A DNA stretch of 64,000 nucleotides from NCBI GenBank assembly GCA_964016885.1, contig OZ024752.1, positions 32,116,001 to 32,180,000 on the forward strand. Reading direction: 5' to 3'. Position 1 is the stretch's first letter; every line of letters begins with the position of its first letter. The notes below the pieces were generated by a model. That model worked only from the letters and a program-made list of their open reading frames with translations, was not told the origin of the DNA and did not search any database. Source of the DNA: Eledone cirrhosa (taxonomy: Eukaryota). A program made the translations under genes and the position numbers. This document shows, in pieces, positions 11,160-35,512 of the stretch.

Positions 11160-13217
11160 ATAAAACATGAGAAGAAAGAATACTGTGTGGTTGCACATGG
11201 GTTACATATGATAAAAATAGTCCTTCGTCAGTGATTTTCCAACCTTCATTGGTATTTCATCGCATTAAAAATCATATACCTCCGGTATTGGGACAAGTGA
11301 ATCGCGTAAAGCGAGTGAGACAAGTAAACAACATAGAAGGAGGAAAGCAACGCAAAGATAGGAAAAAACAGTAACATGGTTATTCGGTCAGCTTAAGCTG
11401 GGTGGATTACATGAGCGAGAGAGATATACAGACCATCCGACGTGAGTGAGATGTGAGCAGGAAGAGAACCCACTACAAGCCAAACGGGAGGAAGTGAGAA
11501 GGGGAGAAACAGAGAGTGAGTGATTGGAAGTGCGAGGAACAGGTCAGTCGAGAGAAAGTGTAACTGACAGAGGGGGCGAAAGAAGGTGAGAGAAACAGAG
11601 AGAGCGGGGAAGCAGTAAGAGAGAAACAGACAAACGCAGCCGAGGTAAATATATATAAAAAAACATGAGAGTTATATATATATATATATATATAGTTATA
11701 TAGTTATATATGAGGGTGTTAAAGTTTGCTTGAAGCATTGTGAAATGTGTAAAATAAGTAGTTTAGAAAGTCACAACAATGCAGAGGGAAATCTCGAGGT
11801 AGGAAGTGAATGATAGATAGGAGAAATAGGAGAAAGTGAAAATTGAGAGAGACAAAGATGAAAACAAAACAAAGGTAGAAGGGTTACCGTAGTGGAGATT
11901 TAATCCCAATATTTCGGGCTCACGCCCATCAACGGGGGAAAGTTCCAAAAAGGGGGGGAACAGGCTAAGCCGGAGAAAGTTGTGATGTCGTTAAAACAGG
12001 AATGCCGTTATGGGGAGAAAATTTAAATGAGGGAAAGAATGCTCGTGCGCGTGATAGGCTGTGGCAAAAGCTACTGACCAAATGGGTTAAATCAAGAGGG
12101 TGCGCTAGCGTGTGAAAGCCGTAAAATATGTGTGTGTAAATATATATGTGTGTGTAACTGTGTGTGTATATGTGTAAGTGTGTATATGTGTGAGTGTGTG
12201 TGTGTGTGAAAGATAGTGGGCTGTAGAAGCTGGAAATCAAAGGGTGTGAAAGGTGGTAGGTTGTAAAACATGTGTGCGTGTATAAATATAGATGTGTATG
12301 CGTATGGGTATATATGTGTGTGTAACTGTGTGCGTATATGTGTAAGTGTGTATATGTGTGAGTGTGTGTGTGTGTGAAAGATAGTGGGCTGTAGAAGCTG
12401 GAAATCAAAAGGTGTGAAAGGTGGTAGGTTGTAAAAACATGTGTGCGTGTATAAATATAGATGTGTGTGTATGCGTATGGGTATGCATATACGTGCGTGT
12501 GTGTGAAAATAGCAGGCCGTAAGGGCTGTGAAAGGTCACTATGGTTAAATTAGCCATGTCAGCTCATTTCTCTCAGCCCGGTTGTTAAGTGGGGGTCTGA
12601 GGTTCTTAATAACAAGTGCTTCCTTTATCCTTAAGGATCCGATGCTGCGTTCAGTCTTTAGGACTGTGACCAAGGGTCTACCAAGGTTTTACAACCTACC
12701 ACCTTTCACACCCTTTGATTTCCAGCTTCTACAGCCCACTATCTTTCACACACACACACACTCACACATATACACACTTACACATATACACACACAGTTA
12801 CACACACATATATATTTACACACACATATATATTTACACACACATATTTTACGGCTTTCACACGCTAGCGCACCCTCTTGATTTAACCCATTTGGTCAGT
12901 AGCTTTTGCCACAGCCTATCACGCGCACGCGCATTCTTTCCCTCATTTAAATTTTCTCCCCATAACGGCATTCCTGTTTTAACGACATCACAACTTTCTC
13001 CGGCTTAGCCTGTTCCCTCCCTTTTTGGAACTTTCCCCCGTTGATGGGCGTGAGCCCGAAATATTGGGATTAAATCTCCACTACGGTAACCCTTCTACCT
13101 TTGTTTTGTTTTCATCTTTGTCTCTCTCAATTTTCACTTTCTCCTATTTCTCCTATTTATCATTCACTTCCTACCTCGAGATTTCCCATCTGCATTGTTG
13201 TCGCTTTCTAAACTACG
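11160..13217 (-). mobile_element. PLE A: extremely 5'-truncated Penelope-like element with inverted terminal duplication
   Basis: Minus-strand 12686-12545 translates LGRPLVTVLKTERSIGSLRIKEALVIKNLRPPLNNRAERNELTWLI* (GIY-YIG C-terminal E..I...P.LN motif; not in the ORF track). Arms ~11759-12436 and ~12687-13217 are inverted copies. Flanked by (TA)n. Confidence 0.75.
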
Positions 13218-13563
13218 TATTATAGTTATATATATATAGTTATAGTTATATATATATATATATAGTTTATATATATATATATAGTTTATATATATATATA
13301 TATATTAGTTATATATATATAGTTATATATATATATAGTTATATATATATATATATATATATATATATATATATATATATATATATATATATATATAGTT
13401 ATATATATATATATATATATATATAGTTATATATATATATATATATATATATATATATATATATATATATATAGTTATATATATATATATATATATATAG
13501 TTAAAATATTAAAAAAATAATGAATAAAACAAAGAAACAGTTCCTAATATTAAACAAAAAAAG

Positions 13564-13706
13564 TTCATTATTTTACGATCGTTTCTAGGACATATATGTG
13601 TTAGAATTGGCATGCATATTCAAAAGATCTATGTACAAAATTATACAAACTATCAAGGAGAATATACATACCATCACATATATATGCTGTCTTCAGAAAT
13701 AATGAA
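13564..13706 (-). ncRNA. Minimal type I hammerhead ribozyme motif (inverted copy of 18229-18371)
   Basis: Exact reverse complement of the 18229-18371 motif. Confidence 0.75.
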
Positions 13707-14413
13707 GTATATTTATTGATAATAACAACAATTCAAAATTACAGGTCTGTTTGGGAACAGATTTTAAATAGACCAATGAAATACATAAAAATTCATCAAG
13801 AAAATACAGTTAGGTGTGTGTATATATGTAAGTAAATTCGTTCACAGATATGCATAAAATTGTATGTTCATATGCATACGCATGTCGAAAAAGTGTATGT
13901 AAATATAAACATTTAGGGCTAATGTATCTGTATGTTTATAATCTACAGACAAAATATACATACATATACATATACATATACATACATATATACACACATA
14001 TACATACATGCATACACACACACGCACATATACATAAACACACACATACACATACGAACACACATATACACACACACACACACACACACACACACACATA
14101 CGTATATATTATTATTATAACTATATGGATATTGAGGCGCTCACATAAACACGCCCAACACACTTACATTCAGATGCAGACTTAAAGGAGGTAAGGGAGT
14201 AAGTAATTAAAGGAGAGTGTCAAACTCGGCATATTTATAAAAATGTATCTATAAAGTTAGAAATAAAAAAAAAATTTTTATAGAAGGAAAAAACTTAAAA
14301 ACGGGGGAACAAAAAATAAGGGGGGGTGGGTACGTACATACACAGACGCGAATGTCTCACAAAAGAAATATAAAAAAACATAAAAAAACATAAAAGAGAG
14401 ACATAAAATATAC

Positions 14414-34000: not shown

Positions 34001-35147
34001 GTCTCTGTACAAAGGCCATATGTATTAATATGCATATGGAATGACTACAGAGTATATTTTATCTGTTCATGTACCTGTATGTGTGCATACATATATATTT
34101 ATATGTATGTGTGGGTATAGTTCTGTATATGTTGCAGATATGCATAATATTCTATACATGAACGATAATCATGTATGTGAGAATATTAATCGTTTATTTT
34201 TTATGTATATATATATAGTGAAATTTTTTATAACACAAGGAAAAAAAAATTTTTTTTGTGAAACAAGAAATTACAGAGTTGATCACGTAAAGTCATGGGT
34301 ATGTCTATACTATCAACTAGAGCTTGACATGACTTTCTCTTTCTCTTTTTCTTTCCTTTTCCAGAAAGTGCAAATGCATGTGTATGTATATACTTATATA
34401 TCTCCGTATTTTTATAAATAGGGTAATTTTTTGAAGATTTATCTCAGTTTTTGGTACATCGACCTCAGAGTTTTAAACTAAACATATGGTCATTATTGAG
34501 CAAAATTATTTTCACACATTATATATCTATGTCTCATTCATGAATATTGATATTTACATTATATTACCCAGTTCATATGAATTGATAATTCAAATTGATA
34601 GGACATGACGTAAAGATGTAACTCTATCATCCCTCTCTCTAGATATAGCTCTTTCTTCTCCTCTCTCTTTATATATAATGAGGTTTATGTATCTGTTATT
34701 TTGACTTCGCCTCTCATGTTTCTCTCTTATTTCTCTCTTGATTTTCACCTCCCCCTATATAATTATTATTATTTTGTCTCCCTCTTTCTTTTCCCCCCAC
34801 CTCTATCTCTCTCTGTTTTCTCTTCATCTCCATATTTTCTTTCTTTCCGTCTCCTCTCCTTAACACTATAACTAAATAATTACCGTACTCCCTCCCTCTT
34901 AAATCTCTCAATTTGTATGATGAATTATTATTATTCATCTGTTGCCTTCGGTTGCCTCTCTTTTTTCACCTCCTCCCTATTTCTCTGCTTTTCTTTACAT
35001 ACATTTCTTCTTTTTCTCCGTCTTTCTTTATAACTATGCTTAACACTAAATATTTATAAACACTTCACTACCAAACCAGCTTCCTACATAATGGTCGCTC
35101 ATACTTATGGTACGTCAAAATTATTTATAAAACTGTTTATATATTGT

Positions 35148-35211
35148 ATTTTATCTGACGAAGGCATGCCATATTTTTAATATGGTATCCCCGAAATATA
35201 TATAATGAAAT
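35148..35211 (+). ncRNA. Minimal type I hammerhead motif (PLE D inverted arm)
   Basis: attttat-CTGACGA-aggcatgccatatt(ttt)aatatggtatcccc-GAAA-tatata-TA-atgaaat. Confidence 0.72.
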
Positions 35212-35335
35212 GAATATGGTTTTATAAATATAGTTTCCATTTGTTTAATATCGTGTGTATATATATATATATATATATATATATATATATATATATATAT
35301 ATATATATATATATATATATATATATATATATATT

Positions 35336-35512
35336 GGAAAAGAGTCAGAACCCCGACAGCTGAGTTCCGGCCGTTTCGACAGCTAGATCCGAAACGGCCG
35401 GAGCTCAACCGTCGGGGTCCTGACTCTTTTCCTATTACCCACTCTACTACCCTAAGTATCGAGTACTCTGGTGCGTTATGGTCCACCTCGTTCCTTGCCA
35501 CACTTCCTTCGT
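35336..35512. repeat. GC-rich island in (TA)n beginning with a 97-nt fold-back (35336-35432)
   Basis: ggaaaagagtcag.accccgac...ccggccgtttcg pairs with cgaaacggccgg...gtcggggt.ctgactcttttcc. Confidence 0.8.

Follow-up and report, generated by a model that had tools for sequence, protein, structure and literature searches.

Endonuclease-bearing (EN+) Penelope-like elements (PLEs) are described as inserting in units marked by 5' truncation, partial tandems and an adjoining inverted truncated copy, with a tail at one end only, a preference for (TA)n and asparagine-rich (Asn-rich) inserts in the open reading frame (ORF) (Craig et al. 2021, PMC8557442; Arkhipova et al. 2013, PMC3846280). The mechanism giving rise to the inverted 5'-truncated copy and its one-sided tail was called open in PMC8557442, and self-priming was proposed for a like insertion unit (Pen2a_Av) in PMC3846280. 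In vitro, the PLE protein of PMC11167929 (Poseidon of Anolis; Frangieh et al. 2024), predicted to be dimeric, cuts and extends both DNA strands, and two adjacent RNA start sites define the tail. In Octopus vulgaris 31 recently active Penelope-like families were reported (PMC13282606), in an account whose available part contained no two-arm anatomy, and retrozymes have been derived from such PLE termini (bioRxiv 10.64898/2026.07.22.740005). Our literature search, whose scope left aside most subscription papers and the supplements, which may hold pairing data, yielded nothing on twin priming, pseudo-long-terminal-repeat (pseudo-LTR) miniatures or promoter run-off in PLEs. The window analysed here is a stretch of 64,000 nucleotides (nt) from the 3.0-Gb genome of Eledone cirrhosa (GCA_964016885.1, contig OZ024752.1, positions 32,116,001 to 32,180,000 of the forward strand), rich in microsatellites and in one short interspersed repeat, with a repeat content reminiscent of octopus genomes; between its positions 11163 and 35512, masked self-BLAST and copy mapping delimited a nest of four PLE families bearing reverse transcriptase (RT), named A, B, C and D, together with several miniatures.

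The nest shares with canonical EN+ PLE units the 5' truncation, partial tandems, inverted truncated copy, one-ended tail, (TA)n preference and Asn-rich ORF inserts, differs from the published descriptions by its longer tails (47-135 nt against 30-40 nt), and adds to them a measurement of arm origin and of 5' pile-up points. It is an example of an already described PLE layout, not a new system, and its architecture, noticed in a sequence-only reading of this DNA, is the published signature of the group and nothing particular to the site. We interpret the nest as probably a chance-dense pile of independent PLE insertions into (TA)n, each unit having likely arisen by twin priming, in which target-primed reverse transcription starts twice on a single RNA. 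The elements are PLEs with two fixed 3' ends, one of each per pair of arms; the arms of a pair share private variants, are not nested in one another and carry short TA-like matches at their ends.

Genomic copies of each family were found to terminate at one of two fixed points, a long end or a short end lying 56 (C), ~47 (A), ~135 (B) or 82 (D) nt earlier. Family probes returned 786-4649 first-look candidates each, and only the best-scoring 40 per search were taken, a choice that favours young copies. The tables were read by hand to count the pairs. Pairing in family C was assessed with two tail-neutral probes, both upstream of both 3' ends. The first sample held 34 insertions (the window and 33 loci, with the partners of L047 and L059 resolved separately), 20 of them two-armed with both ends visible, and 19 of these 20 combined one long with one short end. 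A second sample of 30 loci, reduced to 20 new insertions once the window, double hits and repeats had been removed, gave nine resolved insertions, all of them mixed. Taken together, 28 of the 29 resolved C pairs were mixed (binomial p 6e-8 against 0.5). The probes for A, B and D favour tailed arms, and with them mixed pairs numbered 15 in 24 A stretches, 10 in 21 B stretches and, for D, 15 in 21 stretches plus 10 in 30 further loci; these samples also held three pairs with the tailed arm facing a run-on tandem and two with an incomplete end. The copies of families A-D thus bear out the proposal that the architecture is stereotyped genome-wide with (TA)n as target. The long untailed arm at L034 and L084 amounts to one complete unit and starts directly behind the tail position of the unit upstream. 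Arms belonging to different families meet head to head or adjoin at L044 (C with D), L049 (C with H) and L150 (H with D).

Alleles private to a locus were common to both of its arms at 1.1-1.2 per kb, against 0-0.12 between loci (families A-D). At family-polymorphic sites C arms differed by 0.19 per kb within loci and 1.93 between them, and C differences on polymorphic sites stood at 3/78 within loci against 176/991 between. Six substitutions and a 1-base deletion, all of them private, are common to the two C arms of the window; the deletion is present in two of 33 arms, both in the window. Total arm difference in family A was 16.7 per kb within loci and 15.8 between, and because the former is not below the latter, the one-template signal in that family comes from shared alleles only. 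The mutation spectrum (5 transitions and 4 transversions among shared alleles, 20 and 10 among one-arm changes) involved numbers too small to separate the models.

In the first C sample, with its 19 mixed pairs, the tailed arm was the shorter in 7, the longer in 11 and equal in one. At L041 and L052 it consists of the tail only (16 and 40 nt) and has no overlap with an untailed arm of 2.4-2.5 kb. The tailed arm was also the shorter in 6 of 15 A pairs, at L095 and L106 (B), and at L071 and L084 (D). Neither arm is therefore a plain copy of the other. A TA-like sequence of 3-6 nt stands at the break of all eight A-D ends, and the arms are joined through short overlaps or fillers.

The anatomy of the nest, determined by masked self-BLAST of the window and mapping onto full genomic copies, is listed below by window position.

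11117..11162: (TA)n, left boundary of the nest
11163..11672, minus strand: family F, a single arm consisting of one ~526-bp repeat unit that has no ORF and ends in (TA)n
11707..12682, minus strand: family A tailed arm, covering the last part of the GIY-YIG frame and the 3' region
12686..13224, plus strand: family A untailed arm, stopping ~47 nt short of the long end; 3-nt junction filler
13227..13499: (TA)n between A and B
13499..14420, minus strand: family B untailed arm, stopping ~135 nt short of the long end
14417..18569, plus strand: family B tailed arm, 5'-truncated Hydra-like ORF and ~2.8-kb 3' region
18562..18996: (TA)n between B and C
18997..22836, minus strand: family C tailed arm, 5'-truncated Neptune-like RT and GIY-YIG, Asn-rich insert, 56-nt tail
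19232-19260: hammerhead-type motif in the C tailed arm
22839..25612, plus strand: family C untailed arm; 2-nt junction filler
25409-25437: hammerhead-type motif in the C untailed arm
25613..27275: expanded, interrupted (TA)n
27276..27460, minus strand: D-like short tailed arm
27898..28212, plus strand: family C fragments, an untailed arm beginning at the hammerhead-type motif and abutting ~10 nt of inverted tail; partly duplicated
28680..28866, plus strand: D-like short untailed arm
28888..29247, minus strand: family H single tailed arm, hammerhead-type core at 29169-29193; family also present at 364-612
29366..29933: mini-C pair, tailed arm 29366-29677 (minus strand) and untailed arm 29683-29933 (plus strand)
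30024..30576: older repeats, 72-80% identical to other copies (last 140 bp ~91%)
30620..34002, minus strand: family D tailed arm, 5'-truncated Hydra-like ORF, 82-nt tail, with an inserted fragment of a short interspersed nuclear element (SINE)
33999..35254, plus strand: family D untailed arm; 4-nt junction microhomology, hammerhead-type motif near 35155-35195
35258..35334: (TA)n
35335..35512, plus strand: family G miniature, with an inverted and a sense arm of 50 bp each and a tail of ~77 nt

In each long unit the two arms meet head to head at their 5'-truncated ends, with the 3' ends directed outward into (TA)n, and units A, B, C, D, mini-C and G are all flanked by (TA)n. Substitutions between arms amount to 1.35% (A), 0.92% (B), 0.68% (C), 0.96% (D), 2.4% (mini-C) and 12.8% (G), the SINE fragment (30882-30981) is present in the left D arm only, and one arm per unit is always without the family-specific terminal tail of ~47 (A), ~135 (B), 56 (C), 82 (D) or ~77 nt (G). 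The ORF of the B tailed arm comprises the thumb, an Asn-rich linker and the endonuclease, with one frameshift. The centre of family G varies among its many copies. Beyond the two TA tracts of mini-C lies a 10-bp inverted repeat (29306-29315 and 29959-29968).

The proposal of a nest of four PLEs and miniatures in head-to-head inverted arms was thus confirmed, and the nest also contains single arms of other families (11163-11672 and 28888-29247) and the older repeat at 30024-30576. The four PLEs had been called unrelated, which does not hold for B and D, with 46% amino-acid identity over 344 residues. The second arm had been described as an inverted copy of the element's own 3' end; it is inverted, but does not comprise the whole 3' end, given that one arm always lacks the tail. 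As to the ORF-less miniatures, the one placed at 29306-29968 is an inverted pair whose proposed span takes in the flanking TA tracts, the probable one at 35336-35512 proved to be the two-arm family G unit, and that at 364-612 has the two-arm form with outer ends that do not lie in (TA)n.

Family C gave Pfam matches to RVT_1 (E 1.4e-4, below cut-off) and to GIY-YIG (E 6.8e-5), and Pfam returned no useful match for B, D or a further copy at 50027-52812. The RT and GIY-YIG domains of A, B and D were recognised by motifs in the window and in full copies. In all four families the endonuclease is C-terminal to the RT, a domain order that rules out membership of Naiad/Chlamys, in which it is N-terminal. 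Partial tandems forming pseudo-LTRs were found at L039, L057 and L060 (C), L068-L070 (A), L091 and L103 (B) and L243 (D). With their C-terminal GIY-YIG, pseudo-LTR tandems and an inverted 5'-truncated copy with a one-sided tail, the elements are Penelope-like, as had been proposed.

Clade placements are by motif. Family C shares with Neptune its TA targeting, a hammerhead-type motif, the CX4CxxC linker and the CCHH-type endonuclease. The Hydra definition of PMC8557442 (DKT, the CxCx5C linker, the CxxC and CxH motifs, no CCHH, (TA)n targets) fits B, D and the copy at 50027-52812, which depart from it by units of ~4-5 kb where less than 3 kb is usual and possibly by RWR, seen at the likely position of the N-terminal RWK in L096 and L084. 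Family A combines an RT with a CCHH nuclease, and its linker in L069 is CX4C without the following xxC of Neptune; because the linker is incomplete, A was given no clade. Its full unit of 3.45 kb occurs as a tandem array in L068/L069, where, at G000:C2:62.70-62.72 Mb, at least five tandem A units are closed by an inverted untailed arm. The minus-strand copy at 50027-52812, the third Hydra-like copy of the window, ends in (TA)n and showed no inverted arm in self-BLAST. Family F (11163-11672; L132) forms direct tandems ending in (TA)n, with 3995 first-look candidates, and may be a retrozyme-like passenger.

A pattern search detected a hammerhead-type core with stems in C, D and H, and none in B (a further possible departure from Hydra), F or G. 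Family A has a hammerhead-like variant (window 11900-11940, minus strand) with two core letters changed, alike in 33 of 35 matches. No hammerhead was among the Rfam matches listed, which were hairpin or microsatellite look-alikes below gathering scores and were discarded. These motifs are, from their type, candidate ribozymes.

The 5' ends of arms were also found to accumulate at particular points. In the second C sample, 13 arms from 8 of 20 insertions had their start between -347 and -367, counted from the long end, and both arms of the window mini-C begin at this point. In family D, 15 of 28 aligned arms began at -242 to -274 (2 of 30 loci were unaligned), -276 being the usual arm limit in the first D sample; B showed a looser group at -888 to -928. 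The C limit lies between a GCGCATGCGC and a AAAATGGCG word, which we take to be promoter motifs. The D limit coincides with the A of the word TCACT, called initiator-like in PMC3846280. Cleavage at the hammerhead was rejected as cause of the D pile-up, because the motif sits ~140-185 nt from the long end and the arms accumulate at 242-276; the C core occupies -294 to -266. The stop of the miniature arms would mark the likely 5' end of the RNA, reached by run-off at the transcript start, and a strong pause site would give the same pattern. Somewhat short of an even chance, in our estimate, is the fuller proposal that every PLE insertion is made by two RTs, which begin at neighbouring sites of one RNA and extend opposite target strands, and that the abundant hairpin miniatures copy the upstream pseudo-LTR by run-off, their centres marking the transcription start. 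If true, genome copies alone would give the in vivo integration route and a promoter map of every family.

In LINE-1 twin priming two primers use one RNA and leave its 5' part inverted; the second lies far inside the RNA, so that nothing is duplicated. The PLE units would likewise arise from two primers on one RNA, but here both start near the same RNA end, and for this reason the 3' end is duplicated. A protein dimer would nick both strands of (TA)n, and the two free DNA ends would prime at two neighbouring start sites of one RNA, the stretch between these becoming the tail. The two complementary DNAs (cDNAs) would stop independently or at the RNA 5' end, and their ends would be joined by microhomology or a short filler. 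Miniatures would follow from priming in the upstream pseudo-LTR and synthesis to the transcript start, and the TA tracts left at each end may expand and be reused as targets, producing local piles. The Poseidon system (PMC11167929) agrees in its two adjacent tail-defining start sites, in cutting and extending both strands and in its AT-rich targets; as described there, the two sites are not tied to one-per-arm pairing and no homology is reported at the start site.

Several observations weigh against twin priming. L055 is a long plus long pair, tailed on both sides, the only one of its kind, and 14 of the 34 C insertions of the first sample were single-armed or had a partner that was not resolved. 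Non-nested arms could also arise by deletion across the palindrome centre, and shared alleles could stem from later gene conversion. Short TA matches are not rare in AT-rich sequence, and the in vitro work, in the part available, saw no homology between cut DNA and start site (PMC11167929). The transcript start invoked for the miniatures is placed from genomic copies, not from RNA. Finally, near-perfect palindromes outside the pile-up zone (L061, L211, L113 and L073) are what fold-back predicts.

Fold-back or self-priming is the rival that survives best, and we consider it unlikely. Here a single cDNA, or an antisense template, would fold over and serve as its own template, trimming of one end by the endonuclease would restrict the tail to one side, and the arms would become unequal through later deletions across the unstable centre. 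Besides those palindromic centres, it accommodates the private variants common to both arms, and precedents are the self-priming proposed from junction palindromes in PMC3846280 and the nuclease resolution of the tail in PMC8557442. A second arm copied from the first under fold-back or template switch is, however, expected to lie wholly inside it, and the non-nested arms therefore disfavour the simple form: the shorter tailed arm in 7 of 19 C pairs is at odds with it, and L041 and L052 would each time need the deletion of nearly the whole of one arm. Both outer ends moreover resemble priming junctions with TA-like matches, and the two ends correspond to the two start sites observed in vitro (PMC11167929). 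The route proposed by the sequence-only reading, fold-back or template switch at the truncation point, is weakened accordingly.

Whether elements are drawn to the site beyond what its TA content explains, as to a special landing pad or trap, was judged against 40 evenly spaced control stretches totalling 400 kb. Arm clusters numbered 16 over the 24.4 kb of the nest, or 6.6 per 10 kb, which puts it at the top of the control range (51 clusters; mean 1.28, maximum 7 per 10 kb); the nest count is inflated because the probes derive from the nest itself. The (TA)n share of the nest was 13.7% against 5.5% in the controls and its cover by element ORFs 30% against 3%. The density and ORF cover favour such a trap, but no 10-kb excess of other families was found around young copies (0.9-1.1 arm clusters per 10 kb), and the 40 kb flanking the nest are ordinary. 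The only effect was a local one: another element end lay within 400 bp of 43 of 213 young ends, some loci being counted twice, and of 464 of 8000 random positions (5.8%); the adjacency of young ends equals that of any long TA tract (82 of 518 tract sides, 15.8%). Piles of elements follow from the shared use of TA tracts, and with random 10-kb stretches already carrying more than one arm cluster on average, the idea of one special landing pad lost ground and appears quite improbable.

Less probable still, with only a slim chance, is the priming of the two strands by two separate RNAs, followed by gene conversion in the inverted repeat that makes the arms alike. It would explain the different-family junctions at L044 and L049, which may also be nested insertions, and the A arms that differ as much within loci as between them; the contrast in C differences at polymorphic sites, given above, would require conversion to erase these and yet spare the private ones.

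In raw short reads of two individuals both family C ends were joined to TA, with 2377 and 2420 reads bearing loose TA ends at 19053, and 3663 and 2775 loose read ends at 19008, near the long end; no read bridging the window's own C junction was found in four sequencing runs. Despite that unbridged junction, an origin of the inverted arms in assembly of fold-back reads has a negligible probability, because private substitutions (0.7-1.4%), unlike ends and the one-sided SINE insertion set the arms apart, dozens of loci obey the same end rule, and the raw reads contain both ends and strand-switch joints.

Elsewhere in the window, an uninterrupted 1073-residue frame at 1220-4441 (plus strand) encodes an apurinic/apyrimidinic (AP) endonuclease, an RT and C2H2 fingers and belongs to a young long interspersed nuclear element (LINE), presumably RTE-like. 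Two segments, 60887-61192 and 62228-62533, form a 92% inverted pair whose end matches 4888-4916 behind the LINE and whose outer ends lie in (TA)n and (CA)n; the pair represents two insertions or a similar two-arm event in a LINE. Tandem arrays occupy 40100-44110 (22 bp), 44414-45745 (37 bp, a piece of the SINE), 55347-55936 (196 bp) and 63506-64000 (41 bp).

How the inverted repeat and tail of PLEs form was stated to be open in PMC8557442. Thousands of young copies from several clades now yield three rules open to measurement: each pair combines the two types of end, its arms have a single template, and the 5' stop is fixed. These rules bind any model and are testable in the existing in vitro system, and the value added by the E. 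cirrhosa copies lies in genomic constraints on the mechanism that favour twin priming on one RNA over fold-back.

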